Positions 10,681-40,519 of a stretch of 64,000 nt of DNA are shown piece after piece (within the stretch, counting starts at the first letter, position 1; the number at the start of each line of letters is the position of its first letter). The position numbers and the translations under genes were made by a program. Below the pieces are notes generated by a model. It saw only the letters and a list, made by a program, of their open reading frames with translations. It was not told the origin of the DNA and searched no databases. Source of the stretch: Candidatus Eiseniibacteriota bacterium (lineage in GTDB: Bacteria; Eisenbacteria; RBG-16-71-46; CAZAMP01); the NCBI GenBank assembly GCA_965224245.1, contig OZ245046.1, positions 2,112,001 to 2,176,000 of the forward strand, read 5' to 3'.

Positions 10681-11538
10681 TCACGTCGAGGCCGGCTTGC
10701 GGGCCACGACGGCGAACTCGGACGCCGCGGGATCGAACTCGCCTCCGGCCACGTCCCCGAGAACCTCCTCGACGACGAGACCGCTCCCCTCGACCTCACG
10801 CGTGAGCGCACCCGGATCGTAGTGCTGGAGCCAGTTGTAGACGACCCGTACCCGCGCCGGCTCCACGATCGTGTACCGGTCGAGCACCACTTTCTCCGCG
10901 TCGTACTTGAAGGTGCGGAGGAAACCGAAGTACGGCTCGGGCGACCAGAACCCCCCGAGGAGATCGCGGCCGACCTCGAGGCGCTCCTCCCGGCGCTCGA
11001 ATGCGCCGAGCGACACGACGTCGAGGAGGAGCGCTCCGCCCGGCTCCAGGATCGCCTGGAACACGTCCAGCAGGCGGCGTCGCTGAACGGGACCGAGCGC
11101 GCAGAAGTCGCACATGATCATCGTGACGAGGTCGAACCGTTCACTCCATCGGTGCTCGAGGTAGTCGGCGTGAACGTGATCGACCGAGACCCCCCGGCGC
11201 CGGGACAGCTCGCGCGCGTATCGGATCGAGCGCTCGGAGAAGTCGATTCCGTGCACGCGAGCGCCGGCGGCCGCGAGCCGCGTGGTATAGAGCCCCGGCC
11301 CGCAGCCGAAGTCGGCCACGCGGGCGCCGCCCCCGAGTGCGAACCGATCGGCGATCCAGGCCGCGGACCGATCGATGAACGCCCCCGATCGCGACGCCAG
11401 GTCGCTCGTTCCGTCCAGGTGACACTCCAGCATCCGGGCCGACGTGTGTGGATCGGTCCAGAGCTCGGCGACCGTGTGAACCTCGAACGGTGCCGGTCGC
11501 GCGTCGATGCTCTCGAGCGCGCCGTAGAGGTCGTTCAT
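10681..11538 (-). CDS. Class I SAM-dependent methyltransferase
   Basis: VADFGCGPGLY, GIDFS..SIRYA, FDLVTMI; ATGA overlap with upstream permease. Confidence 0.9.
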   Translation of the reverse strand: MNDLYGALESIDARPAPFEVHTVAELWTDPHTSARMLECHLDGTSDLASRSGAFIDRSAAWIADRFALGGGARVADFGCGPGLYTTRLAAAGARVHGIDFSERSIRYARELSRRRGVSVDHVHADYLEHRWSERFDLVTMIMCDFCALGPVQRRRLLDVFQAILEPGGALLLDVVSLGAFERREERLEVGRDLLGGFWSPEPYFGFLRTFKYDAEKVVLDRYTIVEPARVRVVYNWLQHYDPGALTREVEGSGLVVEEVLGDVAGGEFDPAASEFAVVARKPAST

Positions 11539-12449
11539 GCGCGGCTCTCCTCGTCGTACGGAACGCCCACGTTCCCCGGCGGTGTCGATCGTCCGATGAA
11601 GCCGCACAGGACGACGAGCGTCAACACGTACGGAATCATCTGCACGACGTGTGAGGGCACGTCCACGCCGAGCGAGGTCTGGAGCCTGATCTGGAGCGCC
11701 TCGGCGAACCCGAACACCAGGCTGGCCAGGACGGCCCCCCCGGGGCGCCACTTGCCCACGATCATCGCCGCCAGCGCGATGTATCCGCGTCCAGCGGTCA
11801 TTCCGGACGTGAACGACGCCTGCTCGCTGGCCAGATACGCCCCCGCGAGCCCGGCCAGGAGGCCCGAGGCGAGAACGCCCGCCGTCCTCACCCGGCGCAC
11901 GCGGATGCCGAGGCTCGCCGCCGCCACGGCGTGCTCGCCCACCGCGCGCAGCCGGAGCCCGAAGCGGGTCCGGTAGAGCACGACGTGCGAGGCCACCGCG
12001 ATCAGGAGCGTGGCCAGGACGAGCGGATGCGAGAGGGTCGGGCCGACCACCGGAATCGCCGACAGCCCCGACACCGCCCCCGGATCGAACCCGACGATGC
12101 GCGGCGAGTTCGAACTCGAGCCGAACACGAGCTTCAAGGTGAAGTCGGTGGCTCCGAGCATCGTCAGGTTGATCGCGATGCCCGAGACGATCTGCTCGCC
12201 GCGAAAGCGGATGGTCACGATCGCGTGCACGCCCGCCACGGCGAGACCGACCAGGAGTGCCGCGAGCACGCCGAGCTCCGGAGCCTGACCGAAGTACGCA
12301 CCGATCGCGAAGCCGAACGCGCCGGCGAGCATGATGCCCTCGAGCGCGATGTTCACCACCCCCCCGCGCTCGGAGAACATCCCCCCCAGCGACGCCAGCA
12401 CGTACGGGATCGAGATGCGGAGTCCCTGGGCCACGAAGGCGATCTCCAT
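11535..12449 (-). CDS. Nucleoside ABC transporter permease 2 (NupC/YufQ type)
   Basis: SERGGVVNIALEG, RFGLRLRAVGEH, GRGYIALAAMIVGKW. Confidence 0.93.
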   Translation of the reverse strand: MEIAFVAQGLRISIPYVLASLGGMFSERGGVVNIALEGIMLAGAFGFAIGAYFGQAPELGVLAALLVGLAVAGVHAIVTIRFRGEQIVSGIAINLTMLGATDFTLKLVFGSSSNSPRIVGFDPGAVSGLSAIPVVGPTLSHPLVLATLLIAVASHVVLYRTRFGLRLRAVGEHAVAAASLGIRVRRVRTAGVLASGLLAGLAGAYLASEQASFTSGMTAGRGYIALAAMIVGKWRPGGAVLASLVFGFAEALQIRLQTSLGVDVPSHVVQMIPYVLTLVVLCGFIGRSTPPGNVGVPYDEESRA

Positions 12450-12450
12450 G

Positions 12451-13515
12451 TCAGGACCTCCCGGCCAGTGCGGCCTTCGCGCGCTCGACCCGGAGCCGCT
12501 CGGCGACCGAGCGGCTCACCAGGATCATCAGGATCACGACACCCTGGAGGATCGAGACGATCTCCTTCGGCACGAGGTCGCTGACGGTCAGCCCGCCGTG
12601 CTGCATCGCCCCGAACAGGAGCGCGGCCAGCACGACGCCGATGGGCCGGCTCTGCCCCAGCATCGCCACCGCGATGCCCATGAAGCCGACGCCGTCGGAG
12701 AAGTTCGCTCCGAAGTAGTGCCGGTAGCCGAGCACCTCGTGCACCCCGACCAGCCCCGCCATCGCACCGCCCAGCACGAAGGCCGTCCGCTGGCGGGCCC
12801 CGACGGCGATGCCCGCCGCGCCGGCCGCGCGCGGGTTCAGCCCCACCGCGCGGAGCTCGAATCCGAGCGGGGTCCTCCACAGGAATACGTGGACGAGCGC
12901 GGCGACGACCAGCGCGACCGCGAGGGCGACGCTCACCGATGCGCCCCGGAAGGCCGGGATGATCGTCGAGAGCCGGGGCAGCCAGATCGACGACGGCACG
13001 TGCTCGGTATGGATGGTCTCGGGCACCGCCATGTGGTACGTCACGACGTATCCGGTCAGCGCGATCGCGACGAAGTTCAGCATGATCGTGCTGATCACCT
13101 CGTGCGCGCCGAAGCGGCTCTTCAAGGCGCCGGCGATCCCGCCCCAGAGCGCGCCCCCGAGCGCCGCGGCGATCATCACGCCCGCGCACAGCATCGGTCC
13201 GGGCACGCCCGGCAACGCCAGCGCCAGCGCCGCGGCGGCGAACGCGCCGACGTAGAGCTGACCCTCGGCGCCGATGTTGAACAGCCCCGCGCGAAACGGA
13301 AGCGCCACCGCGAGCCCCGTGAAGATCAGCGGCGTGGCGTTGAACAGCGACTGCCCCAGGCCGTAGGGGGACAGGAGCGTCTCGGAGACGAGCCGCGCCA
13401 GCACCACCATCGGAGACGCACCGGCCACGGCGACCAGGATCGCGCCGATGCCGAGCGTCAACGCAGCGGCGGCGACGGCGGTGACGAGATCGATCCGTCT
13501 CGCGTCGGTGCTCAT
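12451..13515 (-). CDS. Nucleoside ABC transporter permease 1 (NupB/YufP type)
   Basis: TPLIFTGLAV, GLFNIGAEGQ, HEVISTIMLNF, GFELRAVGLN. Confidence 0.93.
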   Translation of the reverse strand: MSTDARRIDLVTAVAAAALTLGIGAILVAVAGASPMVVLARLVSETLLSPYGLGQSLFNATPLIFTGLAVALPFRAGLFNIGAEGQLYVGAFAAAALALALPGVPGPMLCAGVMIAAALGGALWGGIAGALKSRFGAHEVISTIMLNFVAIALTGYVVTYHMAVPETIHTEHVPSSIWLPRLSTIIPAFRGASVSVALAVALVVAALVHVFLWRTPLGFELRAVGLNPRAAGAAGIAVGARQRTAFVLGGAMAGLVGVHEVLGYRHYFGANFSDGVGFMGIAVAMLGQSRPIGVVLAALLFGAMQHGGLTVSDLVPKEIVSILQGVVILMILVSRSVAERLRVERAKAALAGRS

Positions 13516-15059
13516 CGGACGCTCGCTCGACCGCCGAGCATCCACTCACCCAGCACCTCGGGCGTGGCCTCCTCACCCGGAAGCTCGGCCACGATCGCAC
13601 CGCGCACCATCACCAGGATGCGATGCGACAGCGTCGTCAGCTCGTCCAGCTCGGCGCTCACGAGCAGCACCCCCAGCCCGTCCGAGGCCGCCTCGGCCAG
13701 CATGCGGTGGAGCGACGCCACCGCGCCCACGTCCACGCCGCGCGTGGGCCCGGCCGCCACCAGGAGGACCGGATCTCCGGCCAGCGCGCGGGCCAGGACC
13801 ACCTTCTGCTGATTGCCGCCCGAGAGTTCCTCCACCGGTGCCCCGGCGTCGGGCGGTCGCACGTCGTAGCGCCCGACGAGCGCCTCCGCCTCGCGGGTGA
13901 CGGCCGCGCGATCGCGGAGGAGCGCGTTCGCGAACGGGCGGCGGCGATGTCGGCCCAGGACGAGATTGTCCGCGACCGAGAACGTCGAGACGAGCCCCTC
14001 GTCCAGCCGGTCCTCGGGGACCAGTCCGATGCCGGCGTCGGCGAAGGCACCGCGGTCCCGCCCGCGGAGCTCGGTCGCGCCCAGCGTGATCCGCCCCGAG
14101 TCCGGCGCCCGCAGTCCGGACACGACCTCCACGAGCTCGGTCTGTCCGTTTCCGGCCACACCGGCCACGCCCACCACCTCGCCCGCGCGCACGCCGAGGG
14201 ACACGTCGTCGAGAAGCGTGTGGCCGTGGGAGTCCGTCAGCGAGACCCGATCCAGCGACAGGAGCATCTCGCGCGAGCGCGGCGCCGTCCGCCGCGGCGG
14301 CACCGGCAGCGAGCGTCCGACCATCGCGTGCGCGAGAGACTCGATGGTCACGTCCGACACGGCGGACGTGGAGATGGTGCGACCGCGCCGCATGACGGTG
14401 GCGCGATCGGCCACCCGCACCACCTCGGACAGGCGGTGCGTGATCAGGATGATCGTGCGTCCCGACGCTGACAGCCCGGTCAGCGCACGGAACAGTCCGT
14501 CGGTCTCCTGGGGGGTCAGCACCGCGGTGGGCTCGTCGAGCACCAGCACGCGGGCGCCCCGGTGCAGGAGCTTCAGGATCTCGACCTGCTGCTTTGCACC
14601 CACGCCGAGCGTGTCCACGCGAGCGCACGGATCGACCGGCATGCCGTGCTCGGCGCCCAGCTCCGCCACGCGCGTGTCCGCCCGGCCGCGGAGGTGGAAG
14701 CCGGCGCGTACCGGCTCGTGACCGAGGACGACGTTGTCGGCCACCGTGAGGGGTGCGACCAGCGTGAAGTGCTGGTGGACCATGCCGATGCCGGCCGCGA
14801 TGGCGTCGCGCGGAGACCGGAGCTCGATCTCGCGTCCGTCGACGCGGATCTGGCCCGCGTCGGGACGCGTCTCGCCGTAGAGGATGCGCATCAGCGTGGA
14901 TTTGCCGGCGCCGTTCTCGCCCACGATCGCGTGGATCTCGCCCCGGTTCGCCGAGAACGACACGCCGTCGTTGGCGATCACACGCGCGAACCGCTTGACG
15001 ATGCCGGTCAGCTCGACCGCGGGCGTCGTGCCGTTGTCCGCCCTCGCCCCGGGGGTCAT
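13512..15059 (-). CDS. Nucleoside ABC transporter ATP-binding protein, two ABC domains (NupA/YufO type)
   Basis: GENGAGKST, GMVHQHF, LDEPTAVLTPQE, GVAGNGQ, LSGGNQQK, PTRGVDVGA. Confidence 0.93.
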   Translation of the reverse strand: MTPGARADNGTTPAVELTGIVKRFARVIANDGVSFSANRGEIHAIVGENGAGKSTLMRILYGETRPDAGQIRVDGREIELRSPRDAIAAGIGMVHQHFTLVAPLTVADNVVLGHEPVRAGFHLRGRADTRVAELGAEHGMPVDPCARVDTLGVGAKQQVEILKLLHRGARVLVLDEPTAVLTPQETDGLFRALTGLSASGRTIILITHRLSEVVRVADRATVMRRGRTISTSAVSDVTIESLAHAMVGRSLPVPPRRTAPRSREMLLSLDRVSLTDSHGHTLLDDVSLGVRAGEVVGVAGVAGNGQTELVEVVSGLRAPDSGRITLGATELRGRDRGAFADAGIGLVPEDRLDEGLVSTFSVADNLVLGRHRRRPFANALLRDRAAVTREAEALVGRYDVRPPDAGAPVEELSGGNQQKVVLARALAGDPVLLVAAGPTRGVDVGAVASLHRMLAEAASDGLGVLLVSAELDELTTLSHRILVMVRGAIVAELPGEEATPEVLGEWMLGGRASVR

Positions 15060-16123
15060 CGCGTGCGCGGCACCGTCACGCGCCCGGAGACGATGTCGTC
15101 CCGGTAGGCCTCGACCTGCGCGTGCACGTCGTCGTCGATCAGCTCCCGGTTGTGATCGTCGTAGACGTAGTCGACGCCCCGCTCGGCCAGTCCCAGCTCG
15201 CGCACGCCTCCCGAGAAGCGACCGGCCAGCTCGGCCTTGATCGTCTCGAAGACCGCGACGTCCACGCGCTTGACCATGCTGGACAGGATGCGCCCTGGCG
15301 CCTCCTCGTATTGATCGGAATCGACGCCGATCGCGAAGCGCCGCGTCTGGCGCGCCGCCTCGAACACGCCGAGACCGGTGGCGCCGGCCGCGTGGAAGAT
15401 CACGTCCGCCCCGGACTCGTACTGCGCGAGGGCCAGCTCCTTGCCCTTCGACGGGTTCGCGAACGCCTCGCCGGTGACCCCGGCGTAGCTGACGAAGACG
15501 GTCACGTCCTCGCGCGCGTGCTCGGCGCCGGCCTCGTACCCCGCCTGGAAGCGATGGATCAGCGGGATGTCCATGCCGCCCACGAACCCGATCTTGCCCG
15601 TCTTCGACGTCAGCGCGGCCAGCGCGCCGACCAGGAACGAGCCCTCTTCCTCCCGGAACCGGAGCGCCGTCAGGTTCGGCGGCAGCGTCTCGCCGTCCTT
15701 CAGCGAGTAGTCCACGCAGGCGAAGTGCCGATCGGGGAACTCCTCGGCGATGTGCCGGATGTCGTCGGAGAACAGAAACCCGACCCCGAACACGAGCTTC
15801 AGGTCGGACGCCGCCATCTTCCTGAGCGACGGCTCGCGATCCGCGCCCGATGGTGGCTCCAGGATCTCGAAGTCGATCCCGAGCGAGTCGCGGGCCCGCA
15901 GGAGTCCCCGGTATGCGGCGTCGTTGAACGACTTGTCCCCGAGACCGCCCACGTCGAACACGAGCCCGACCACGGGACGGGACTGGCTGGACGACTGGTC
16001 CGCGCGGCATCCCCAGAGCACGACCGCCCCCAGCGAGAGGCCCACGAGCGCGGCCGACACCCCGCGGGCGAGGCGGCGCCGGGGCGGGTCCGGAACGCGC
16101 GTGCCACAGCGGTCGGCCATCAT
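15056..16123 (-). CDS. BMP-family (PnrA/TmpC) nucleoside-binding lipoprotein
   Basis: Lipobox [43 protein letters not shown]. Confidence 0.93.
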
Positions 16124-16692
16124 CCCTCCCTCGGCGGCTGGAAGCAGTGGCGGCATCGCGCCTCGTAGACGTCGGCGGCCCCGACCACGATGCGCTCGCC
16201 CGACGGTGTCTTGCGCTGGCTCCGATTGCCCGGCCCCCCGCACACCACGCAGATGGCCAGCGTCTTGGTGATGTACTCGGCGATGGCCAGGAGCTCGGGG
16301 ATCGGCTCGAACGGGCGACCGCGGTAGTCGGTGTCGAGCCCGGCGACGATCACCCTCCGGCCGCCCGCCGCGAGATCCTGACACACACCGACCACGCGCG
16401 GACCGAAGAACTGCACCTCGTCGATGCCCACGACCTGGGCGTCGCCGGCCAGCTCGGCGATCTCGGCCGACGTGGACACGGCCTGCGACGGCAGGCTGAT
16501 CTGACTGTGCGACACGATGTGATCGGCGCGGTAGCGGTCGTCGAGCTTGGGCTTGAAGATCGCCACCCGCTGCTTGGCGATCTCGGCGCGGCGCAGACGG
16601 CGAATGAGCTCCTCGGACTTTCCGCTGAACATGCTGCCGCAGATGACTTCGACCCAGCCCGGCCGTCCGGCCGGATGCGGCGGTGGATTCAT
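16120..16692 (-). CDS. tdk: Thymidine kinase
   Basis: [32 protein letters not shown], Zn-binding CVVC...CRHC. Confidence 0.97.
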
Positions 16693-16745
16693 GCGAGGAC
16701 TCCCGACGACCGCCGGCGCCGTGGATCGCGCCGGGTCGTCCGCGT

Positions 16746-17384
16746 TCAGTTCATGCCCGCGAGCTGCGAGCGGATCTTGGTCTTCAACAGATCGACGGCC
16801 ACGTGATTGTAGCCGCCCTCGGGAATGATGACGTCGGCGTAGCGCTTGGTGGGCTCGATGAACTGCTGGTGCATCGGCCGGACGTACGCCTCGTACTGCG
16901 CGATGATCGACTCGACCGAGCGCCCGCGCTCGAACACGTCCCGCTTGAGGCGGCGGATGAACCGCACGTCGGGATCGGTGTCGATGTACACCTTGATCCG
17001 CATCTTCTCGCGCAGTCGCCGGTCGTAGAACACGAGAATACCCTCCAGGATCACGATCCGCGAGCCGCCGGCGCGCGTGGTCTCCCGGGTGCGAACGTGG
17101 TTGACGTAGTCGTACACGGGGACGTCCACGTGCGTGCCGGACAGCAGCGTGTCGACGTGAGCCCGCAGGAGGTCGGTGTCGAACGCGTCTGGATGGTCGA
17201 AGTTGAACGCGGCGCGCTCGGGCTCGGGCATGTGGCCGAGGTCACGGTAGTAGTTGTCCTGCCGGAGGATGACGACCTTGTCGGGCCCCAGGTCGTCGTA
17301 GATGGACCGGGCCACCGACGTCTTGCCGGAGCCGCTGCCACCGGCGATGCCGATCAGGATCCCCTCCTGCTCGCGCAGGATCAT
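16746..17384 (-). CDS. udk: Uridine kinase
   Basis: [54 protein letters not shown]. Confidence 0.96.
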
Positions 17385-17686
17385 GCCCCACCTCCCCCGG
17401 AGTCCCGGCCGGACGACGGCGAGCGCGATACGTCGTCCACCACCCCGACGATCATCGTGCGTACGGGACCACGGCCGGTCTCCATGACCACCGCGGCGCC
17501 GCCGCCTTCGTCGTTGACGAGGACCCGATCGCCCACACCCGCGTCCACGCTGTCCAGCGCGATCACGTCGTCGGGCTCGAGCTCGCCGCGATCGTTCTCG
17601 TACGCGATCACGAGCAGCTTCCATCCCACGAGCGCGGGATGCTTGACGGTGGACACCACCTCGCCGGTCACCCGCGCGACACGCAC
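17381..17686 (-). CDS. EutN/CcmL family bacterial microcompartment vertex (BMC-P) protein
   Basis: MRVARVTGEVVSTVKHPALVGWKLLVI...IALDSVDAGVGDRVLV..EGGGA...IVGVVD; GTG start with GGAGGA RBS. Confidence 0.92.
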   Translation of the reverse strand: MRVARVTGEVVSTVKHPALVGWKLLVIAYENDRGELEPDDVIALDSVDAGVGDRVLVNDEGGGAAVVMETGRGPVRTMIVGVVDDVSRSPSSGRDSGGGGA

Positions 17687-17687
17687 G

Positions 17688-18341
17688 TCAGTCCTCCGGT
17701 CCCGCGTCCAGCGCACCCAGGCGACGCGCGCGGGCCCGTACGTCTCGGTAGATCCGCTCGAGGCCGTCGTCGAGAAAGTCGGGCGCCTCGGTGTCGACCT
17801 CGAGCACCTCGAAGCGATCGCGCGCCTCGGCCATCCAGGCCGCATACGCGTTCTCCAGCCGCTGCAGGTACTCGCGCGAGATCCCCTGCTCGCACTCGCG
17901 GCCCCGGCTCTGGATCCGCTCCACGTGGGTGTCGATCGACGCCTTGAGGTACAGGATGAGATCTGGCGGGCGAAGCCCGTCGACCATCTCCCAGAACAGC
18001 GATCGGTAGGTGTCGTAGTCGATGCGCGACATGTCCCCTTGCCGGAGCAATGTCGTCGCGAAGACCTCGGCGTCCTCGTAGATCGTGCGATCCTGGATGA
18101 ACGAGCGTTTCTCCATCACGAAGCGCTTCTGGGCCTTGTAACGCTCGGAGAGAAAGTACATCTGCAGGTGGAACGACCACCGCGCCATGTCGGCGTAGAA
18201 GTCCTCGAGATACGGGTTCTCGATGACGGGCTCGTAGTACACCGGCCAGCCCAGTCGCTGGCTGAGCGTGCTCGAGACGTGCGTCTTGCCCACGCCGATG
18301 TTGCCGGCGACCGCCAGGAAGAAGCCGCGCCCGGCGCTCAC
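17688..18341 (-). CDS. Deoxynucleoside kinase (dCK/dGK family)
   Basis: AGNIGVGKT, YEP..ENPYL.DFY, QMYFL..R, QDRTIYED, PDLILYL, RIQSRGR..E. Confidence 0.94.
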   Translation of the reverse strand: MSAGRGFFLAVAGNIGVGKTHVSSTLSQRLGWPVYYEPVIENPYLEDFYADMARWSFHLQMYFLSERYKAQKRFVMEKRSFIQDRTIYEDAEVFATTLLRQGDMSRIDYDTYRSLFWEMVDGLRPPDLILYLKASIDTHVERIQSRGRECEQGISREYLQRLENAYAAWMAEARDRFEVLEVDTEAPDFLDDGLERIYRDVRARARRLGALDAGPED

Positions 18342-18865
18342 ACGCCCGCCTCGGCCGGATCGAGAACGCCGATGTAGGGCAGCTCGCGGTGCCGCTCGGC
18401 GTAGTCCATGCCGTACCCGACCACGAACTTGTCGGGGATCGCGAAGCCCACGTAGTCCACCTTCACGTCCACCTCGCGCCGATCCACCTTGTCCAGGAGC
18501 GCGCAGGTCCTGAAGGACCGGGGGCGCCGGATCTGGAGGCTATCGCGCATGTAGGCCAGCGAGCGACCCGAGTCCACGATGTCCTCGACGAGCAAGAGAT
18601 CGCGGCCGGAGACGTCGGTGTCCAGGTCCTTCAGCAGGCGCACGACGCCGCTGGAGGACGTGCCGTCCCCGTACGAGGACACGGACATGAAGTCGACCTC
18701 GTGCGGGATCGGCAGCCTGCGCATGAGGTCCGACATGAACATGAACGAGCCCTTGAGGACGCCGACCAGGATCAGGTCGGCGTCGGGACCGTAATCGCGC
18801 GTGATCTCCCCGGCGAGCTCGTCGACCCGCCGGTCGATCGCCTCGCGCGTGATGAGTATCTCCAC
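18338..18865 (-). CDS. hpt: Hypoxanthine phosphoribosyltransferase
   Basis: VLKGSFMFMSDL, VSSYG, LLVEDIVDSGRSL, LLDK, FVVGYGMDY; start approximate. Confidence 0.96.
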   Translation of the reverse strand: MEILITREAIDRRVDELAGEITRDYGPDADLILVGVLKGSFMFMSDLMRRLPIPHEVDFMSVSSYGDGTSSSGVVRLLKDLDTDVSGRDLLLVEDIVDSGRSLAYMRDSLQIRRPRSFRTCALLDKVDRREVDVKVDYVGFAIPDKFVVGYGMDYAERHRELPYIGVLDPAEAGV

Positions 18866-18998
18866 GGCTGAGCTCCCCCCTGCGCGCGCTTGCGGAATTG
18901 AGTCGGCGAGGGTAGCGTCCCGCTCGAGAGGGGTCAATCGGTCTCCCCGGCACACGCCGCAACGCGGTACGGCTCCGAACGCTCGCCCCGAGGTCGCC

Positions 18999-20096: not shown

Positions 20097-20205
20097 ACAT
20101 CCCCGTCCACGCGGTCCTCACCTCGTGGCGGGAACACGCTATAATGGACGGGTCGCGCATGCGCGGCGCGAACCGTCGACGCACATCCCCGGAGCTCCAT
20201 TCGGC

Positions 20206-20664
20206 ATGCCTCAGCTCGAGCAAACGAAGGTCCGTGTCTCCCGCCAAACCGTTCGAATCCTCTGGTGGGCCTACGCCGGCGCCGTGGCGCTCTCCACCGT
20301 CCTGACCCTGGTCGGAACGGGCACGCGTGGAGAGACCGGGACGACCTGGTCGATTCCGGTGGCCGTGTGCCTGGGGGCCGCGCTGGTGGCCGCCATCTTC
20401 TCCTACCAGGTCATGATGTCGCTGCCCGGAGCCGGACATCAGATCTTCGACACCGTCGGCGATCACTTCGAGCTGGCGATTCGCAACCTCTTCTTGCGAT
20501 TCGTTCTCGCCGGCGGCGCGGCGACCGGCACCGGGCTCGTGGGGGCCGTCACGTTCGCGCTCGGTGCGAACGGCGTGCTCAGCCTGGCCGTGATCGGCCT
20601 GGCGTTCGGGCTCCTGTTGCTCCTCCGCCAGCGCGTCGCACCGCTGGTTCACTACCTGGCCTAG
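20206..20664 (+). CDS. Hypothetical 4-TM membrane protein
   Basis: Four hydrophobic segments; TATAAT at 20140-20145 upstream. Confidence 0.65.
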   Translation: MPQLEQTKVRVSRQTVRILWWAYAGAVALSTVLTLVGTGTRGETGTTWSIPVAVCLGAALVAAIFSYQVMMSLPGAGHQIFDTVGDHFELAIRNLFLRFVLAGGAATGTGLVGAVTFALGANGVLSLAVIGLAFGLLLLLRQRVAPLVHYLA

Positions 20665-21506: not shown

Positions 21507-21555
21507 CGACGCGCACCCTGCGCCTCATCCAGCGCCGGCGTCCCGCCGGACACGA

Positions 21556-33454: not shown

Positions 33455-33465
33455 GGGTATCGCCG

Positions 33466-34986
33466 ATGGAGTCGAGTCGATCGATTGGAGCCATCGGGGC
33501 GCGCGCGGCTCTCGCGGCGGCCTCGGTGGTGCTGGTCGTGGCCGGCTGCGAGGCCCCCACCGGCTCCCGGGTCGGCAACCTGCCGCCCGAGACGTACCTG
33601 TTCATCAGTGACGCCGAGACCGACACCACGAGCTACGTCGTGGACCTCCACTGGTGGGGATCGGACCCCGACGGCGACGTGGTCGAGTATCAGTTCCGGA
33701 TCGACAGCCTGTGGACTCCCGATCCGACCGATACGTTGACCGCCGACGACCCGCCGTGGGTCCGCACGGTCCGCACCGAGCGGACGTTCACGCTGCCGGT
33801 CGAGGGCACCGGCCGGTCGGCGGTGGTGACGTTCCGCGCCGTCGACGACGCGGGCGCGATCGACCCGATGCCGGTCACCCAGACCTTCCACCTCCGGAAC
33901 CGAAAGCCGACGCTGGAGTTCGGCACAGACCTGGCTCGGCCCACCCGCTCGCTGCCCGCGGTCACGTTCTCGGTGGTCGCCGAGGACCCCGAGGGCGACG
34001 AGACGATCGTCGGCTACCGCGTGTGGTTCGACGGCGAGGACCGGGAGACGGACGCGCGCACGATCCCCGGGCCCGCGGTGGCCCAGATCGCGCTCGGTCC
34101 CGACGACTTCCCGAGCGCCGGCGCGCTGACGATCAACATCGTGGCCGTCGACGACTCGAACACCGAGAGTGACCGGGTGCTCCGGCACACGTGGGACGTC
34201 ATCGACACCGAGGCCAAGCGGGTCCTCATCGTCGATCAGTATCCCGCCGGTGGGCTGTTCGACGCGGACATCGCCGCGTTCTGGCGGAACGTCACCGAGG
34301 CGCGCCTGTCACCGGACGAGATCATCACGTTCGACTACACGGCCGACGGCGGCTTTCGCACGACGGCCGAGGTGGAGCTGAGCTTCTCGGCATTCGAGGC
34401 GGTCATCTGGTACTCGGGGCTCCAGCCGAACAACCTGACCCAGACGCTCCGGCGCATCCAGGAGCTCAGGCGGGCCAGCCAGGCGATGGAGCGATACACC
34501 GCCGGCGGCGGGAACGTGCTCCTGTCGAGCACGTTCGCGTTCGGAAATGCAGTGAACCCGACCGAGGGTGCGGCGTCGGCCGCCTGGGATTCCGCCGCCA
34601 CGTATCGCCTCTTGCGGATCACGCGCGAGTTCACGAACCCTCAGGGCAACACGAACTTCCTGTTGTTCCCGACGATCACGTTCGGCTTTCCGGCCGAGTG
34701 GGCACTCCCGACCACGCATCCGCAGGGACTGCTGAACTACGTGGACTTCCTGGCCGTCCCGACCCGCATGACCCGGCTCATGTGGGTGCCTCCGGGGTCT
34801 CTCAACGTGGGCTTCGACGATGACGGCAACTTCGTCCAGAACGAGGTCGACTACGACTGCGCGTTCCGGATCGACACCGAGGGCGGCGGCGCGTTCGTCA
34901 TCGCCACGCTGCCGCTGTCGCGGCTGAACCCGATCACCTCGGGCGAGACGTTCGTGAACCGGGCGTTCGATGCGTTCGGGCTCTGA
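33466..34986 (+). CDS. Lipoprotein with Ig-like repeats and C-terminal alpha/beta domain
   Basis: Lipobox VVAGC; NLPPET..LHWWGSDPDGDV..Y, FRAVDDAGAIDP; VLIVD, AVIWYSG, GGNVLLS. Confidence 0.78.
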   Translation: MESSRSIGAIGARAALAAASVVLVVAGCEAPTGSRVGNLPPETYLFISDAETDTTSYVVDLHWWGSDPDGDVVEYQFRIDSLWTPDPTDTLTADDPPWVRTVRTERTFTLPVEGTGRSAVVTFRAVDDAGAIDPMPVTQTFHLRNRKPTLEFGTDLARPTRSLPAVTFSVVAEDPEGDETIVGYRVWFDGEDRETDARTIPGPAVAQIALGPDDFPSAGALTINIVAVDDSNTESDRVLRHTWDVIDTEAKRVLIVDQYPAGGLFDADIAAFWRNVTEARLSPDEIITFDYTADGGFRTTAEVELSFSAFEAVIWYSGLQPNNLTQTLRRIQELRRASQAMERYTAGGGNVLLSSTFAFGNAVNPTEGAASAAWDSAATYRLLRITREFTNPQGNTNFLLFPTITFGFPAEWALPTTHPQGLLNYVDFLAVPTRMTRLMWVPPGSLNVGFDDDGNFVQNEVDYDCAFRIDTEGGGAFVIATLPLSRLNPITSGETFVNRAFDAFGL

Positions 34987-35065
34987 GGTCCGAGGCCGCC
35001 CCGCGGCCCGGCCGGGATCCCGGTCGCGCTGACCGGACGGACACCCGCGTCGAGCCCCGCATCTG

Positions 35066-35095
35066 TTGTCGGCTCCGAGGGCCATGTGATAGACT
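35066..35095 (+). promoter_or_regulatory. Putative extended -10 promoter
   Basis: TTGTCG-N18-TAGACT with TG extension upstream of the 35254 gene. Confidence 0.45.
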
Positions 35096-35253
35096 CTGCG
35101 CGCTCGAAACAGACGAGACGCGCGCCGCACCGACAACGCAACTTCGCCATTTACAGCCACTTGCGGCCGTCATCCAGAAACGGAAACAAGGGCGACGGAC
35201 GCCGCAGATCGCGTCGGCGGCCCCGGCACCGCATCCGATCGAAGGAGCCTCTC

Positions 35254-37185
35254 ATGCAGCGAGCCATCGGCTCTCTCGTGTGCGCCGGCGTGGCGTTGAC
35301 CGCGATGGTCGCCCCCGCCGTCGCCGACCTGACCATCTACGACATCCAGGGATACGGAGCTGTGACGCCGGGCAATCCCGTGGACGTCGACGGCGTCGTC
35401 GTCACGGGCATCTACGCGTTCGGGTTCATGGCGCAGGAGCCCGACGAGGATGCCGGGTCGTCGATGTTCGGCCGCACGTACGGCGGGATCTGGGTGTACA
35501 CCGGCGGCGCGCCGGACGTCGAGTTCGGCGATCTCGTGGACCTGGAAGGCGAGTACCAGGAGTTCTTCGACGAGTCCGAGATCGACGTGACGGTGGCCGG
35601 CAGCAGCGTGATGATCGTCGGAACCGCCCCGCAGCCGCCGTACCTTCCGGTCGTCATCACCGACATCAACGACGAGCTCGCCGGTGAGCCGTGGGAGGGC
35701 GTCCTGATCGAGACCACGCAGCCGAACATGGTCTCCACCGATACCCTCAACACCGGCTGCGGCAGCGCCTCCCCGACGCGCTGGGGCGTCTACCAGACCA
35801 GCGCGCCGACCGACTCGCTCTTCGTGCGAAACTCGGTCACCACGCACGAGATCCCGATCCCCGGATCGCCGATCTCGTACCTCCGTGGCCCGATGAGCTT
35901 CCACCGGTGCCTCCGGAAGGTCATTCCCCGGGACAACGACGACATCGGCTACATCGCCGCGCCCAACATCGTCTGGGCGTACTCGACCGGCAACACGTCG
36001 TGCGACATCGTGTTCAGCCGCGACGTCACCCAGGCCAGCGCCGAGGATGTGCTCAACTACTTCTTCGCCTCCGGGGTCGCGGTTCTCGCCGCCGAGCGCG
36101 ACGCGAGCGACTTCAGCGTCGTCCACCTGACGACGTCGACACAGTTCTACGGCATCCAGGACGAGCTGTTCGCGTTCGACATCCAGTCCGAGGGCGGGGC
36201 GGTCATGCCCGCCCCGCAGTCGTTCCAGTTCTTCACCGACGTCCTCGCGATCAGCGACGTCCAGTTCGTCGACGATCCGGTGCAGGGAGCCGACCAGTCC
36301 GAGTTCCTGAACGGCGTCGTCACCTGCGTGGGGGTGGCCACCTCGTCGACCATCGCGGCTCCGACCAGCGACTACTTCTTCGCCGACGCGGCCGGCGCCT
36401 GGAGCGGCATCGCGGTCGATCTGATCGGTGAAGAGGTCGAGATCGGCGACATGGTCATGGTCTCCGGCCGCATCACCGAGTCGTTCGGCCGGACGAACTT
36501 CCAGTACACGGGCTTCGGCCGCTCGGTGAACCTCGGCCCCGGCACGCCGATCGCGCCAACCGCTCTGGCCCCGGGCGACGTGCCGTACCAGGGCGTGCCC
36601 GACTCCGAGCCGTACGAGAGCGTGCTCGTGACCGTGCAGAATGCGGTGCTGGACACCGTTCCCGGCGGCTGGCCGTTCGGCGAGTACTTCATGATCGACA
36701 ACTCGCCGGCCCCCGGTGACTCCGCCATGCTCGACGTCTCCGAGTCGACCGTCTGCTCGGATTTCATGTACATGCCCGCCATCGGTGACGAGGGCGACTT
36801 CACCGGCGTCCTGAACTACTCGTTCTCGAACTACCGCCTCACGCCGCGCTGCGACGACGACATCGACGTGACGGCGGCCGCGGTGGGCATCGTGACCACG
36901 CCCACGGCGCTGGGGCTCGGGAACCACCCGAATCCGTTCAACCCCACCACGACGATCGCCTTCCGGCTCACCGACGCCACGCGAGTCGACCTCGAGGTGT
37001 ACGAGCCGTCGGGCCGCGTCGTCCGGACGCTCATGGCCGGCGTGGACCTCGACGCCGGCGAGCACGAGGTGGCCTGGGACGGAATGGACGACACTGGCCT
37101 GCCGGTGGCCAGCGGGACCTACTTCTACCGCGTGATCGCCGACGGCCGACAGGCGGCCACGCGGACGATGACGCTCCTGAAGTAG
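35254..37185 (+). CDS. Secreted protein with two OB-fold pairs (YhcR/ExeM-type) and C-terminal FlgD-Ig/T9SS-like domain
   Basis: Signal peptide; LTIYDIQG..VVVTG..GF.AQE..GIWVY..GDLV..G.Y.EF; second AISDVQ..GD.V.VSG.ITE.FG.T; GNHPNPFNPTT...WDG.DD.G..VASGTYFYR; AAGGAG RBS. Confidence 0.85.
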   Translation: MQRAIGSLVCAGVALTAMVAPAVADLTIYDIQGYGAVTPGNPVDVDGVVVTGIYAFGFMAQEPDEDAGSSMFGRTYGGIWVYTGGAPDVEFGDLVDLEGEYQEFFDESEIDVTVAGSSVMIVGTAPQPPYLPVVITDINDELAGEPWEGVLIETTQPNMVSTDTLNTGCGSASPTRWGVYQTSAPTDSLFVRNSVTTHEIPIPGSPISYLRGPMSFHRCLRKVIPRDNDDIGYIAAPNIVWAYSTGNTSCDIVFSRDVTQASAEDVLNYFFASGVAVLAAERDASDFSVVHLTTSTQFYGIQDELFAFDIQSEGGAVMPAPQSFQFFTDVLAISDVQFVDDPVQGADQSEFLNGVVTCVGVATSSTIAAPTSDYFFADAAGAWSGIAVDLIGEEVEIGDMVMVSGRITESFGRTNFQYTGFGRSVNLGPGTPIAPTALAPGDVPYQGVPDSEPYESVLVTVQNAVLDTVPGGWPFGEYFMIDNSPAPGDSAMLDVSESTVCSDFMYMPAIGDEGDFTGVLNYSFSNYRLTPRCDDDIDVTAAAVGIVTTPTALGLGNHPNPFNPTTTIAFRLTDATRVDLEVYEPSGRVVRTLMAGVDLDAGEHEVAWDGMDDTGLPVASGTYFYRVIADGRQAATRTMTLLK

Positions 37186-37393: not shown

Positions 37394-40300
37394 ATGCGCG
37401 CGTCCCTGGTCGCGGTCACGGTGCTGATGCTGCTCGGCAGCACGACCGCCACCGCCGACGTCTTCACAGACTATCAGCGCCCCCGCTCCAACGACGTCAT
37501 CACGCCGCGCCTCGCCGAGCGCATCGCGAGCGCCCGTCGGCCCGGCGACGTCGAGCGCGTGTGGGTGTATTTTGTGGACAAGGGCATCGGCTCCGACGCC
37601 GAGCTCCGGGCCGCGCTCCCGGCCATCCGCGAGACGTTCTCCGGGGCTGCGCTGGAGCGAATCGACCGCCGCGGCGTCCCGCTCACGATCACGCACGCGC
37701 CGGTGCGCGAGGACTACGTGGCCGGGGTCGAGGCCACGGGCGCCGACGTCCAGCGCACGCTCACGTGGTTCAACGCGGTGGTCGCCGCGGCCACCGGGGC
37801 CGAGATCGATGCGATCGCGGCCCTGCCCTACGTGGCCGCGATCGACGTCGTCCGGGGCAGGACCGTCGTCCCCGACCCGGTCGATCTCCTGGGTCGGGCA
37901 CCCGGACGAACCGATCGGGTCCCGGAGACCGAGCGCGGGCAGGTGGCCAACTTCTACGGTCTGGCGTTCACGCAGTACGACAAGATCCAGGTGGACGAGG
38001 CGCACGCGGCCGGCTACACGGGCAAGGGCGTCCGGATCCTGATGCTCGACTCGGGCTTCGACAAGCGGCACCCCGTCTTCCACGACACCGAGCTGGTTGG
38101 CGAGCACGACTTCGTCCAGGACGACGACGTCACGTGGTCCGAGCCGGACGGCTCGCCGCCCGATCGCCGCTGCGACGACAGTCACGGCACGTCGACCTGG
38201 TCGCTGACCGGCGGCTACTACCCGGGGACGATGGTCGGCGTGGCCTTCGAGGCCGAGTTCGCCGTGGGCCGCACCGAGTACGCGCCGACCGAGACCCACG
38301 GTGAGGAGGACTTCTGGGCCGAGGCCGTGCAGTGGTCGTTCGACGAGGTGGGTGCGGACATCATCAGCTCGTCGCTCGGCTATCGCTACGACTTCGACAG
38401 CGGCGGGGACTACACCTTCGACGACCTCGACGGCAAGACGACCATCGTCGCCCAGGCCGCGAACGTCGCCACCCAGGGCGGCATCCTCGTGGTCAACTCC
38501 GCCGGCAACGAGGGTCGCCGGGGCGCGGGGTCGATCAACTCTCCCTCCGACTCCGACTCGGTGCTCGCGATCGGGGCCATCGACGCCCGGGCCGAGGAGG
38601 AGACGGAGTTCAGCTCCATCGGGCCCGTGGCGCCCGCGTGCGACGGATGTCCCTCACGCATCAAGCCCAACGTGATGGCGCCGGGCATAGAGGTGTACGG
38701 GGCCAACGCCGAGGACTGTGGCTTCTTCGAGGACGAGATCTACAACGGGTTCCTGGCCGGCACGTCGTTCTCGTGCCCGATCACCGCGGGCGCGGCCGCG
38801 CTGATCCTGGAGGCGCATCCGACCTGGACGCCTCATCAGATCCGGAACGCTTTCCAGGAGACCACCCGCGAGAGCCAGGAGGGCATCAACCCGTCCACGA
38901 CCAAGGGCTGGGGCGCGATCCGCGTACTCGATGCGATCGAGTACGACACGCCGAGCGCGCCGGCGCTCCCGATGCCGTTCGATCTGATCTCCCCCGAGCC
39001 GTTCGTGCTGACGGAGACGCCGGCCGCGGCGTCGACGCCGGCCTTCGAGTGGTACCGCTCGCTTCCGGGGCGCGATCCGCGGCAGTCGCAATACACGGTC
39101 GAGGTGGCCACCGACTTCGAGTTCACCGACGTGATCGCCACGATCGATGCGGACGTCGATACCACCGCCAGCGCGGCGGCGCCGATTCCCGAGGGCTTCT
39201 ACTACTGGCGCGTGAAGTCGGCCCCCTCGGCCGCGAGCAGCTTCGTCAGGGAGTCACGCCAGCGCACGCGGTTCCTGATCGACGTCGCGCCGGAGCCCTT
39301 CGCGCTGCTCACGCCGGCCGAGGGCGACACGGTCCGTACGACGCTCCGCCCCACGCTCACGTGGGAGGCCTCGAAGGATACGAGCCCCGGCGACACGCTT
39401 CGCTACGCGGTGACCTACGACACGTCGCCGACGTTCGACGCCCGTCCGAGGACCTTCGGCGGCATCACGAGCACGAGCTTCACGATCCCGGCCGGATCGG
39501 AGCTGGGTGAGAACCGCAAGCACTACTGGAAGGTGTCGGTGAAGGACCGCTTCGGCGCCGCGGCAGGCTCGTCCGTGCAGTCGTTCTTCGTCGCGCCGTT
39601 CCCGCCCGGCCCGTTCACGCTCACGACCCCGGCGGACGGCGACACGGTGTCGACGCTCCGCCCCACGCTCACGTGGACGGCCAGCGTCGATCCCTCGCCC
39701 ACGGACGTGGTTCGCTACCGCATCCTGATGGGATCCTCCCCGACCTCGATGACCGCGCTGCAGTCCAACACGATCCTCGAGACGTCCATCCGCGTTCCGC
39801 TGGATCGACTCGTGGACGACCGCGCCTACTACTGGACCGTCATCGCGGTGGACAGCTTCGGGAACGAGACGGCCGCCTCGGACACGTTCCTCGTCCGGAC
39901 GCTCCTCGGGCCCCAGCCGTTCGCCCTCACGACCCCCGAGGACGGCGCCATCGTGTACCGGAGTCGTCCCACGTTTCGCTGGGACGAGGCCCATCACGAG
40001 CGCGCCGGCGAGACCGTCACCTATCGACTCGAGGTGTCCGACACACCGACGTTCTCGACGCTTCTGGTCGACGTGCCCGACCTGGACACCCCGGTGACCG
40101 TCCTCCGGGAGGATCTGCCCGACGCCGGCACGTTCTACTGGCGCGTTCAGGCCCGCGACTCCGCCGATCGCGCCACGTGGAGCACCGACGTCTTCTCGTT
40201 CGAGAAGCACCCGGCACCCGACGCGTTCGTGGTCTCGTCCGGCCCGAATCCGTTCATTCCGGAGCGTCGGGCGTTCGCGATCACGTACGACGTGCCGGCC

Positions 40301-40519
40301 GAGCTCGGAGGCGCCGTCGTCGACGCCGCCATTCTCGACGTGTCCGGTCGCGTGATCCGCCGTCTCGACCGGACGAGCGCGGCGATCGGAAGCGACCGCG
40401 AGCTCCTCTGGGACGGTCGCGCCGACAACGGATCGCGCGTGCCCGCCGGCGTGTACTACGTGCGGCTGGCGGTGGGACCCCGGGAGACCATCGAGCGCGT
40501 GGTGCTGCTGGCGCGCTGA
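37394..40519 (+). CDS. Secreted S8 subtilisin-like serine peptidase with about 4 FN3-like repeats and FlgD-Ig C-terminus
   Basis: Triad MLDSGF / SHGT / GTSFSCP, oxyanion NSAGNEG; repeats PF.L..P..G...P...W...YYW.V; GPNPF...WDGR.DNG..VPAGVYY. Confidence 0.92.
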   Translation: MRASLVAVTVLMLLGSTTATADVFTDYQRPRSNDVITPRLAERIASARRPGDVERVWVYFVDKGIGSDAELRAALPAIRETFSGAALERIDRRGVPLTITHAPVREDYVAGVEATGADVQRTLTWFNAVVAAATGAEIDAIAALPYVAAIDVVRGRTVVPDPVDLLGRAPGRTDRVPETERGQVANFYGLAFTQYDKIQVDEAHAAGYTGKGVRILMLDSGFDKRHPVFHDTELVGEHDFVQDDDVTWSEPDGSPPDRRCDDSHGTSTWSLTGGYYPGTMVGVAFEAEFAVGRTEYAPTETHGEEDFWAEAVQWSFDEVGADIISSSLGYRYDFDSGGDYTFDDLDGKTTIVAQAANVATQGGILVVNSAGNEGRRGAGSINSPSDSDSVLAIGAIDARAEEETEFSSIGPVAPACDGCPSRIKPNVMAPGIEVYGANAEDCGFFEDEIYNGFLAGTSFSCPITAGAAALILEAHPTWTPHQIRNAFQETTRESQEGINPSTTKGWGAIRVLDAIEYDTPSAPALPMPFDLISPEPFVLTETPAAASTPAFEWYRSLPGRDPRQSQYTVEVATDFEFTDVIATIDADVDTTASAAAPIPEGFYYWRVKSAPSAASSFVRESRQRTRFLIDVAPEPFALLTPAEGDTVRTTLRPTLTWEASKDTSPGDTLRYAVTYDTSPTFDARPRTFGGITSTSFTIPAGSELGENRKHYWKVSVKDRFGAAAGSSVQSFFVAPFPPGPFTLTTPADGDTVSTLRPTLTWTASVDPSPTDVVRYRILMGSSPTSMTALQSNTILETSIRVPLDRLVDDRAYYWTVIAVDSFGNETAASDTFLVRTLLGPQPFALTTPEDGAIVYRSRPTFRWDEAHHERAGETVTYRLEVSDTPTFSTLLVDVPDLDTPVTVLREDLPDAGTFYWRVQARDSADRATWSTDVFSFEKHPAPDAFVVSSGPNPFIPERRAFAITYDVPAELGGAVVDAAILDVSGRVIRRLDRTSAAIGSDRELLWDGRADNGSRVPAGVYYVRLAVGPRETIERVVLLAR

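Follow-up and report, generated by a model that had tools for sequence, protein, structure and literature searches.

Does the outer-membrane receptor encoded directly behind a set of nucleoside genes in a Candidatus Eiseniibacteriota bacterium supply those genes with extracellular nucleic acid? The question is raised by a stretch of 64,000 nucleotides (contig OZ245046.1, positions 2,112,001 to 2,176,000), hereafter the window, in whose span 10681-40519 genes for nucleoside import, salvage and catabolism border on a TonB-dependent receptor cluster. Candidatus Eisenbacteria are little-known bacteria of soil and water. Soils and sediments contain much carbon, nitrogen and phosphorus in the form of extracellular DNA and RNA, and to our knowledge it is only in Bacteroidota, in 2025, that receptor-based utilization of DNA has been demonstrated so far. 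We give an even chance to the reading that a receptor system lacking SusD and assisted by a type IX secretion system (T9SS) captures and imports extracellular nucleic-acid material, which feeds the adjacent nucleoside pathway.

Because the window has about 70% guanine plus cytosine (G+C) and raw lists of open reading frames (ORFs) are full of shadow ORFs, gene calling relied on a log-likelihood model of codon usage for which the window itself had served as training set, and the called genes were scanned against Pfam and NCBIfam. The source genome measures 6.9 Mb and is 97% complete; positions prefixed with C1 refer to it. The nucleoside genes named in the original prediction for this span were all present, at the same coordinates or within a few codons, and the starts that it had chosen at 31418 and 23436 were better than the called ones.

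The receptor cluster and its PorV paralog

As had been predicted, genes for a TonB receptor, a PorV protein and lipoproteins follow deoC on the same, plus strand. The TonB-dependent outer-membrane receptor (25513-28416) begins after a gap of 131 nt and combines CarbopepD_reg_2, Plug and TonB_dep_Rec_b-barrel matches. Its gene overlaps by 11 nt that of a PorV/PorQ-family outer-membrane barrel (28406-29431; NF033709, 167 bits, cut-off 90), which stays below both equivalog cut-offs (PorV, 61.6 of 250 bits; PorQ, 71.3 of 220 bits) and is here called the PorV paralog. Then come a lipoprotein with a lipobox and a six-bladed NHL beta-propeller (29460-31421) and a secreted protein of 678 amino acids and no known family (31418-33454), here named the supersandwich protein after its AlphaFold2 model, whose gene start overlaps the upstream stop by 4 nt (ATGA). 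After 11 nt follows a lipoprotein of 506 amino acids (33466-34986), recognized by its lipobox, in which AlphaFold2 places two Ig/Fn3-like domains and a GATase1/ThuA-like domain. The receptor matches the SusC/RagA model (TIGR04056) only in its N-terminal part (51-216), with 67.5 bits for a cut-off of 368, and falls outside that family; none of the five proteins downstream of it matched the SusD family in Pfam or NCBIfam. The claimed layout, similar to a polysaccharide utilization locus (PUL) without SusD, is upheld by these results, the next gene after the receptor being that of the PorV/PorQ-family barrel.

The ortholog profile of the NHL lipoprotein matched NHL propellers of the Protein Data Bank (PDB) with an E-value of 2.7e-55, as a plain six-bladed propeller. 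The protein has 653 amino acids here versus about 320-400 in relatives, and its similarity to them is split between residues 1-280 and 400-650; the copy of this genome therefore carries an inserted region.

When the PorV paralog was modeled with the last 134 residues of the supersandwich protein, the complex prediction scored 0.91 over three runs, the best of three controls scoring 0.00; 58 of 80 solved complexes and 2 of 110 mismatched pairs attain a score of 0.91. Contacts agreed by at least 81% and the partner had a predicted local distance difference test (pLDDT) score of at least 66. The PorV paralog, which is dedicated to the cluster, is predicted to anchor the supersandwich protein by its C-terminal domain. 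This domain matches no T9SS model, and its fold, a PNPY motif and the complex prediction suggest that it is T9SS-like. The genome encodes the T9SS translocon SprA (540 bits), and at least 355 tblastn segments match the FlgD_ig/T9SS-type C-terminal sorting domain, a number which makes the tail-dependent secretome very large for a genome of 6.9 Mb. Among the other PorV-like genes of the genome there are two more Pfam PorV matches and three more tblastn matches to the window paralog.

The AlphaFold2 models of the supersandwich protein and of the lipoprotein 33466-34986 were built from 27 and 39 orthologs, respectively, taken from related genomes, and reached pLDDT values of 79.7 and 87.7. In the former, a galactose-mutarotase-like beta-supersandwich (about residues 37-390) is followed by an Fn3 domain and by the extended beta-sandwich C-terminal domain that holds the PNPY motif. 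VIA-align matched this model to dextran dextrinase 9ju0 (Z 19.6, rmsd 3.3 Å, 263 residues aligned), to N-domains of the glycoside hydrolase (GH) families GH94, GH15 and GH116 (Z 17-19) and to aldose epimerases (Z 12-14), and Foldseek against the PDB gave low-TM matches only (TMq at most 0.28), to Fn3 arrays and GH116/GH94 enzymes. The lipoprotein was matched to GH42 5xb7 (Z 14.7), 2gk3 (14.2) and the ThuA-like 1t0b (13.1). Its sole invariant cysteine is the lipobox Cys28, and the catalytic cysteine is absent from the GATase1-like domain, so that an amidotransferase triad is unlikely. It must be noted that the structural match lists are dominated by one domain per model and barely probe the others. 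Profile searches of the PDB returned nothing for the supersandwich protein (best E 0.83) or the lipoprotein (best E 0.15), and the ESM Atlas returned unnamed clusters only, with Bacteroidota, Ignavibacteriota, Rhodothermota and Eiseniibacteriota as the commonest phyla, which are unverified leads. An assignment of the two proteins as glycoside hydrolases was rejected, since both lack the catalytic domains that the matched enzymes possess.

A paralogous module lies about 62 kb upstream of the receptor, at C1:2067436-2078987 (L162:7436-18987), beside pgk, tpiA and secG. It encodes a receptor of 907 amino acids, a supersandwich-family protein of 898, a PorV-like barrel of 312 and a protein of 528; the 898-residue paralog has the same unusual C-terminal domain as its counterpart in the window. 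The module is preceded by genes for an outer-membrane barrel and an EB_dh-like protein. A third supersandwich copy (C1:2735166-2737886) has a receptor 7 kb away, and a PorV-like gene was undetected nearby. Of 41 relatives, 34 have several copies of supersandwich paralogs, and families without the ortholog of 31418-33454 are among them. Receptor, PorV paralog and supersandwich protein look like a reusable module with a role comparable to that of SusC/SusD pairs. The predicted tether between the PorV paralog and the supersandwich protein and the paralogous receptor/supersandwich/PorV module in the same genome are new here.

Linkage to nucleoside genes in relatives and the OB-module proteins

Gene order was compared in two samples, whose genomes are kin and not independent of one another. 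The first consisted of 20 genomes of the same class, read from 20 kb upstream of the supersandwich ortholog to 12 kb downstream, and the second of 78 related loci from a species-representative genome collection. Fifty-three loci were informative, the sequence upstream of the receptor being readable for 3 kb or more, and were scored as linked when deoC, rpiB or add lay within 3.5 kb. The best 80 matches of a scan of genome contigs were all Eisenbacteria-like loci. In the class sample, the order from receptor and PorV to lipoprotein recurs in 18 of the 20 genomes, and rpiB, deoC or add stands directly upstream of the cluster in 13 (16 counting a 5'-nucleotidase). Among the 78 loci, 61 have the receptor and 59 the core order receptor-PorV-(NHL)-supersandwich-lipoprotein, and a gene for a tandem oligonucleotide/oligosaccharide-binding (OB) protein lies directly downstream of the orthologs of 33466-34986 in 49 of the 53 loci with room for it.

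Linkage to deoC, rpiB or add at 3.5 kb or less was found in 32 of the 53 informative loci. Four of the remaining 21 have a cdd-like gene 139-253 nt upstream of the receptor, one tested representative of which matches PF00383 (E 3e-8), and two further loci (families f12 and f5; three genomes) have an exported 5'-nucleotidase, then a HAD hydrolase or a small protein with a lamin-tail domain (LTD). A nucleic-acid catabolic gene thus stands upstream of the receptor in 38 of 53 loci, and relatives mostly have the TonB-PorV cluster linked to nucleoside or nucleotide genes, as the original prediction required. The commonest arrangement is tRNA-dihydrouridine synthase (Dus)-cdd-(rpiB)-deoC-receptor. 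Family f9 has add as the immediate upstream neighbor of the receptor cluster. In two genomes of family f11 (G018 and G011), the complete block of purine nucleoside phosphorylase (PNP), Bmp-type ABC importer, tdk, udk, EutN, deoxynucleoside kinase (dNK) and hpt genes lies next to rpiB and the receptor, the tandem-OB gene being relocated beside PNP; another genome (G023) has Bmp, tdk and udk on the upstream side of rpiB-add. Since the linked gene (deoC, rpiB, add, cdd-like or 5'-nucleotidase) changes with lineage, the pattern points to repeated recruitment. Given that the genomes are kin, the strength of the synteny argument is the variety of nucleic-acid genes at one border.

The phyletic tally covered 153 genomes of the phylum, each at least 85% complete and including one flagged as unpublished (G072). 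The supersandwich ortholog is present in 108 of them and in 14 of 18 families, being near-universal within the families that have the cluster; among the 153 genomes it was absent from families f2, f7 and f14 and from all 30 genomes of f8. Several f9 loci (L096, L099, L101, L106, L108 and others) have a second supersandwich gene between add and the receptor, so that paralogs flank the latter. At one f11 locus in a closed genome of 2.69 Mb (L132/G037:C1, about 1157700-1161460), PorV, NHL, supersandwich and lipoprotein genes are present and the upstream receptor was undetected; its tandem-OB match is merely a distant tail similarity on the other strand.

The tandem-OB protein of the window (35254-37185, plus strand; 643 amino acids) lacks a nuclease domain and has OB modules at about residues 25-235 and 329-543, with an Ig-like linker between them. 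It matched the ExeM/NucH model NF033681 over positions 3-116 only (E 2.1e-14; 53.3 bits, cut-off 300), and its tail (TIGR04183, 25.5 bits, cut-off 23; FlgD_ig, E 2.9e-11) places it among the type A cargo of the T9SS. Each module aligns to the repeated module of P0016, a metagenomic nuclease of the endonuclease/exonuclease/phosphatase (EEP) kind (33% identity over 218 amino acids for the protein's match), and a profile of 37 orthologs found the EEP-domain structures 9sf8 and 9sf9, aligning with their residues 7-232 (E 6.5e-11). Twelve of these 37 orthologs match the tRNA_anti-codon OB model and seven match DUF5689 (best E 3.2e-4). The profile of module 2 reached 12,176 representative proteins at E<=0.001. 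Of the best 73 relatives 43 were scanned, 15 of fewer than 700 amino acids (mostly orthologs) and 15 very long ones being left out; 11 of the 43 matched LTD, nine DUF5689 (best E 1.9e-13), five the OB model, three EEP and one PLD. One relative, P0015, has LTD, FlgD_ig and endonuclease I Pfam domains together with a stretch resembling the OB module.

The second of the two secreted OB proteins that had been said to bracket the core (21658-23436, minus strand) has a signal peptide, two lamin-tail domains (LTD, E 2.6e-12) and one OB module, and no C-terminal sorting domain. Its residues 395-617 match module 1 of the tandem-OB family (hhalign probability 91.9%, E 6.9e-7), and its relatives adjoin the cluster in 9 of the 78 loci; a single-sequence search of the PDB returned nothing (best E 0.091). 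Neither protein has a Pfam OB match of its own, and it is by homology that the OB nature of both was confirmed. The proposal that OB and lamin-tail modules are accessories of nucleases likewise found support, both proteins carrying the ExeM/NucH-type OB module, which is homologous to that of EEP proteins. In the available account of ExeM, deletion of the OB region abolishes nuclease activity and the authors see two OB folds contacting the substrate (PMC6085458). The Exo_endo_phos (EEP) domain was matched in neither 21658-23436 nor 35254-37185, and because this catalytic domain is absent both could at most bind nucleic acid, not cleave it.

Proposed mechanism and competing explanations

Within what we regard as the best explanation, and with the same even confidence, the span 10681-40519 holds two functionally connected units. 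Unit 1 (10681-25381) would be an ordinary set for nucleoside import, salvage and catabolism, including a decayed cdd and a second deoC, and unit 2 (25513-37185 plus 21658-23436) a PUL-like outer-membrane uptake system without SusD. The receptor would be co-transcribed with the PorV paralog, the NHL lipoprotein, the supersandwich protein and the lipoprotein with Ig and GATase1-like domains. The supersandwich protein would exit through the T9SS and stay tethered to the PorV paralog by its uncleaved C-terminal domain, forming with the two lipoproteins the extracellular capture apparatus of the receptor. At the surface, the tandem-OB and LTD-OB proteins may bind DNA, RNA or oligonucleotides from outside the cell, and nucleases encoded elsewhere (two secreted EEP enzymes with sorting domains are found in the genome) would cut the substrate. 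The receptor would import fragments or nucleotides, and a periplasmic 5'-nucleotidase, whose gene lies away from the locus in this genome and at it in two other families, would yield nucleosides, which unit 1 would take up and either salvage or catabolize. The analysis shows the identities of the genes, the conservation of the cluster and its recurring linkage to genes of nucleic-acid catabolism, the homology of the OB modules and the two predicted folds; the substrate, the tethering and every transport step are inferred.

The genome encodes four EEP proteins. Two of them have T9SS tails (C1, about 2369650-2371600, L155, with a clear signal peptide in addition; and about 6088350-6090350, L156) and could, judging from sequence, be extracellular nucleases or phosphatases, without linkage to the locus; a 5'-nucleotidase homolog is located at C1:3749838-3751277. 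Given these homologs elsewhere in the genome, we infer that nucleases and the 5'-nucleotidase could be supplied in trans. A wider view, which we put forward tentatively and as clearly short of an even chance, is that Eisenbacteria receptor loci follow a principle other than that of SusC/SusD, in which a PorV paralog permanently tethers a supersandwich lid or capture subunit, the copy studied here being specialized for nucleic acids. As part of that tentative view, OB proteins of the DUF5689/ExeM type may have been recruited and the module wired to nucleoside catabolism, and similar proteins suggested by a language model hint at the same principle in other FCB phyla.

A number of observations weigh against the uptake of nucleic acid. 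No nuclease family was matched in the window by the Pfam and NCBIfam scans, as had already been noted from the letters. In the whole genome, ExeM/NucH was matched only through the OB module, while Endonuclease_NS and SNase were unmatched; tblastn searches with P0015 and P0016 recovered sorting domains, one N-terminal segment and OB modules only, leaving the endonuclease I domain of P0015 unmatched. Nuclease or phosphatase folds, which had been suggested for the supersandwich protein and the lipoprotein 33466-34986, occur in the structural match list of neither model, and the nearest structures of both are accessory domains of carbohydrate-active enzymes. DUF5689 gave no match at E<=1 in the whole genome, the window tandem-OB protein included, and four genes stand between the receptor and the tandem-OB gene, which has an intergenic region of its own. 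As for the tether, a PorV-bound sorting domain has been structurally solved according to the available text (PMC10994853), and the complex score of 0.91 may therefore reflect only likeness to that binding mode. Other observations concern gene order. Fifteen of the 53 informative loci lack an upstream nucleoside gene and have in its place Dus by itself, genes for a TPR/GDSL protein, FG-GAP, MscS or a sulfatase, or a different tailed protein. Dus is a conserved upstream neighbor of the cluster, and a rhomboid protein, a bactofilin and a GAF-SpoIIE phosphatase are kept downstream in four families; as none of these is obviously connected with nucleic acids, gene order in this lineage is conserved over more than operons, and part of the nucleoside linkage may be inherited synteny. 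No rpiA was found in the genome and rpiB is its sole ribose-5-phosphate isomerase found, for which reason rpiB is a housekeeping gene and its adjacency to the receptor may be incidental. Likewise, the paralogous receptor module adjoins pgk and tpiA, so that a central-metabolism neighborhood can be accidental. Finally, deoC occurs in 125 of the 153 genomes, including 7 of 7 of the cluster-less family f7, and since it is also found in families without the cluster the phyletic profiles of the two are uncorrelated. Of the originally predicted scavenging of DNA or RNA, the linkage in relatives, the OB modules and the lack of SusD stand, whereas the folds of the cargo proteins, the S8 protease and the sole rpiB tell against it.

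Much of this would be expected if the receptor imported a glycan or another non-nucleic polymer and the nucleoside adjacency were synteny inherited around a housekeeping rpiB, an explanation to which we assign a real but minor chance. The supersandwich domain resembles N-domains from the families GH15, GH94, GH116 and GH65 as well as aldose epimerases (Z 12-20), the last domain of the lipoprotein resembles GH42 and ThuA-like proteins (Z 13-15), and rpiB would be essential regardless of the receptor in a genome where rpiA was not found; the retention of Dus, rhomboid, bactofilin and SpoIIE genes with the cluster in several families, the pgk/tpiA setting of the paralogous module and the 15 unlinked loci fit as well. 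However, the scanned genes of the window matched no glycoside hydrolase, lyase or esterase family; every gene that intervenes between rpiB (or Dus) and the receptor encodes a nucleic-acid enzyme, which according to lineage is deoC, add, cdd or 5'-nucleotidase; and the OB proteins belong to the conserved members of the cluster (49 of 53 loci), their module being fused, in enzymes, to nucleases.

That the cluster is an envelope or T9SS-associated assembly, for a surface layer or attachment and without uptake, the OB proteins being merely neighboring cargo, we consider unlikely. The sorting-domain segments, at least 355 in number, make tails commonplace, PorV/PorQ proteins are described as parts of the T9SS (PMC10994853) and the cluster is near-universal in the families that have it; but the receptor has the Plug domain and TonB-dependent barrel by which active import is recognized, 4 of 18 families lack the cluster, including f8 with none of its 30 genomes, unlike core envelope machinery, and the module varies and occurs in several copies in the manner of PULs. 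Least probable, and in our judgment very unlikely, is the uptake of intact DNA by receptor and OB proteins for natural transformation rather than nutrition, as with RA0C_RS04915/RA0C_RS04920 of Riemerella anatipestifer. The outline is the same in the account of that system (PMC8459023), a CarboxypepD_reg barrel with a DUF5689-related protein, and ComEC and DprA are present in the genome; they say little, however, because the same searches also found them in non-competent control genomes. Moreover, the locus is linked to deoC, add and 5'-nucleotidase and not to competence genes, and the Bacteroidales relatives of the Riemerella system are reported to degrade DNA (PMC12478041).

Uptake of nucleic acid by a SusD-less receptor system, the reading we prefer, can be placed among known systems. 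The locus shares with the SusC/SusD PULs of Bacteroidota a receptor-centered layout, surface lipoproteins, adjoining sugar-catabolism genes and a multi-copy module, but has no SusD-like protein or glycoside hydrolase, and the position beside the receptor is occupied by the PorV paralog with the T9SS-type protein that it is predicted to tether; no glycoside hydrolase or lyase family was found among the window genes scanned. In the ribose-utilization locus of B. thetaiotaomicron, a receptor cluster reportedly lies beside genes catabolizing the imported sugar moiety. The CytR/DeoR nucleoside regulon of E. coli includes Tsx, a small and passive outer-membrane channel. As there, an outer-membrane entry route is combined here with deoC, add, cdd and PNP, but the route would be an energized receptor with a large surface apparatus. 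In the T9SS, PorV is described as the carrier of type A cargo, alternative carriers anchoring type B cargo (PMC10994853). The loops of the PorV/PorQ barrel of the window are likewise predicted to clasp a beta-sandwich C-terminal domain, but this barrel is encoded inside a receptor operon and its proposed role is that of a permanent tether beside a transporter. Both OB proteins have LTD or OB modules homologous to those of the ExeM/NucH nucleases (Shewanella ExeM; 9sf8/9sf9) and lack the catalytic EEP domain of the latter.

Two described systems come closest. The first comprises the ddbABCDEF DNA-utilization loci of gut Bacteroidales, in which, by the available description, the CarboxypepD_reg-type receptor DdbC is predicted to pair with its DNA-binding partner DdbD (DUF5689) and three nucleases flank them (PMC12478041). 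The ddb loci and the window locus have in common a TonB receptor with a CarboxypepD_reg domain (the window receptor shares the Plug domain as well), surface proteins with DUF5689-related OB modules, a PUL-like layout without SusD and a downstream fate in nucleoside deamination and catabolism. In contrast to ddb with its three nucleases, the window locus has no nuclease gene; its OB protein, unlike DdbD, is T9SS-tailed, without a lipid anchor, apart from the receptor and below the DUF5689 model; a conserved PorV/PorQ paralog, the NHL lipoprotein, the supersandwich protein and the GATase1-like lipoprotein are additional; and the locus belongs to a different phylum and is joined to nucleoside catabolic genes. 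The second is the homologous pair of R. anatipestifer: RA0C_RS04915 and RA0C_RS04920, a CarboxypepD_reg barrel and a DUF5689-type protein, are described as essential for natural transformation (PMC8459023), and relatives of the pair in Bacteroidales are said to serve DNA degradation (PMC12478041). The window locus has such a barrel and a putative DNA-binding surface protein with modules related to DUF5689, but unlike the Riemerella pair, which lies near competence functions, it has many more parts and stands with catabolic genes. The literature search found no paper on such a locus in Eisenbacteria. If the proposal is true, the known range of nucleic-acid feeders would be widened to an uncultivated phylum with a differently built system, the tandem OB module, which 12,176 representative proteins share at E<=0.001, would gain a testable role as a surface nucleic-acid binder, a PorV paralog anchoring the surface subunit of a transporter would be a new use of T9SS parts, and marker genes for necromass turnover in metagenomes would become available.

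Nucleoside genes and neighboring features of the window

The nucleoside genes are conventional, and at least nine of them within about 15 kb is far beyond chance, the arrangement recurring in relatives. The Bmp-type ABC importer, tdk, udk, dNK, hpt, add, rpiB, deoC and PNP that had been named were all confirmed by Pfam and NCBIfam. On the plus strand, adenosine deaminase (add, 18999-20096; PF00962, E 7e-96) is followed by genes for a small membrane protein and a MobA-like nucleotidyltransferase and then by a cdd-like gene (23678-24121), rpiB for ribose-5-phosphate isomerase B (24111-24578; PF02502, E 1e-50) and deoC for deoxyribose-phosphate aldolase (24575-25381; PF01791; TIGR00126, 248 bits), the stops and starts of these last three overlapping. 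The cdd-like gene exists where it had been placed, but its similarity to cdd is weak (TIGR01354, E 2e-4) and CAT replaces the catalytic CAE; it also has LCGLC, whereas eight relatives have CAE (SAE in one) and mostly PCGxC, and a relative at L090:4121-4618 matches PF00383 (E 3e-8). From its sequence it is probably a degenerate, inactivated copy without the catalytic glutamate, kept in the operon. The deoC gene is the second of two in the genome, the first lying beside deoB (C1:790751-793337), and fits a recruited catabolic copy. A DprA homolog is encoded about 4 kb upstream of that first deoC and deoB (785985-786545). Of deo-type catabolism, deoC, PNP and add are in the window, while deoB, correctly said to be missing from it, is the gene just mentioned. 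PNP itself (4338-5219, minus strand; PF01048, E 1.4e-40) lies outside the span, in a separate conserved operon, and directly adjoins the Bmp-type importer operon in family f11.

Consensus scans for promoters and terminators were uninformative at 70% G+C (promoter-like, 1 versus 0.7 expected; terminator-like, 5 versus 3.4). A search of 9-mers in 12 intergenic regions found no shared regulatory motif, only short G+C-rich coincidences and -10-like TAGACT/TAGAAT elements, and the one 10-mer common to the upstream regions of both OB genes was not beyond chance. Intergenic regions of 267 and 208 nt precede 35254-37185 and 37394-40519, respectively. The latter gene encodes an S8 subtilase with a T9SS tail (plus strand; Peptidase_S8, E 3.6e-38), which had tentatively been taken for a part of the system. 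Among the 20 genomes it is kept downstream only in G001, a same-family relative, and is therefore a lineage-specific neighbor outside the conserved system. Convergent to it lies a gene for an FHA-GAF-HD (HD_5) signaling protein (40538-42067, minus strand), which none of the 20 relatives has at this position.

The importer operon, on the minus strand, is tightly packed with 4-nt overlaps. It comprises a Bmp/PnrA-like substrate-binding protein (15056-16156; PF02608, E 7.5e-62), a duplicated ABC ATPase (13512-15059; ABC_tran in two stretches, E 2.4e-49), two inner-membrane permeases (12451-13515 and 11535-12449; BPD_transp_2, E 1e-44 and 6e-42) and a trailing gene (10681-11538) that overlaps the permease gene by 4 nt. 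The binding protein, both permeases and the duplicated ATPase in one operon assign the importer to the Bmp/PnrA type. The trailing gene had been counted with it, but encodes an S-adenosylmethionine (SAM)-dependent methyltransferase (Methyltransf_25, E 4.5e-18) and no transporter part. The Bmp protein probably binds nucleosides, judging from its family and the neighboring kinases; its orthologs, with 64-67% identity, adjoin tdk/udk in G018, G011 and G023. Upstream of the importer on the same strand are genes for thymidine kinase (tdk, ATG ORF 16120-16692; PF00265, E 8e-48 on 16120-16632), uridine kinase (udk, 16746-17384; PF00485, E 3.3e-46), a small EutN/CcmL-family protein (17381-17686; PF03319, E 3e-21), dNK (17688-18341; PF01712, E 8e-53) and a hypoxanthine/guanine phosphoribosyltransferase-type enzyme (hpt, 18338-18865; PF00156, E 5e-26). 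The EutN/CcmL family is that of microcompartment vertex proteins, and shell genes are lacking near this gene; it holds the same position between udk and dNK in G018 and G011, which belong to another family, with 47-50% identity.

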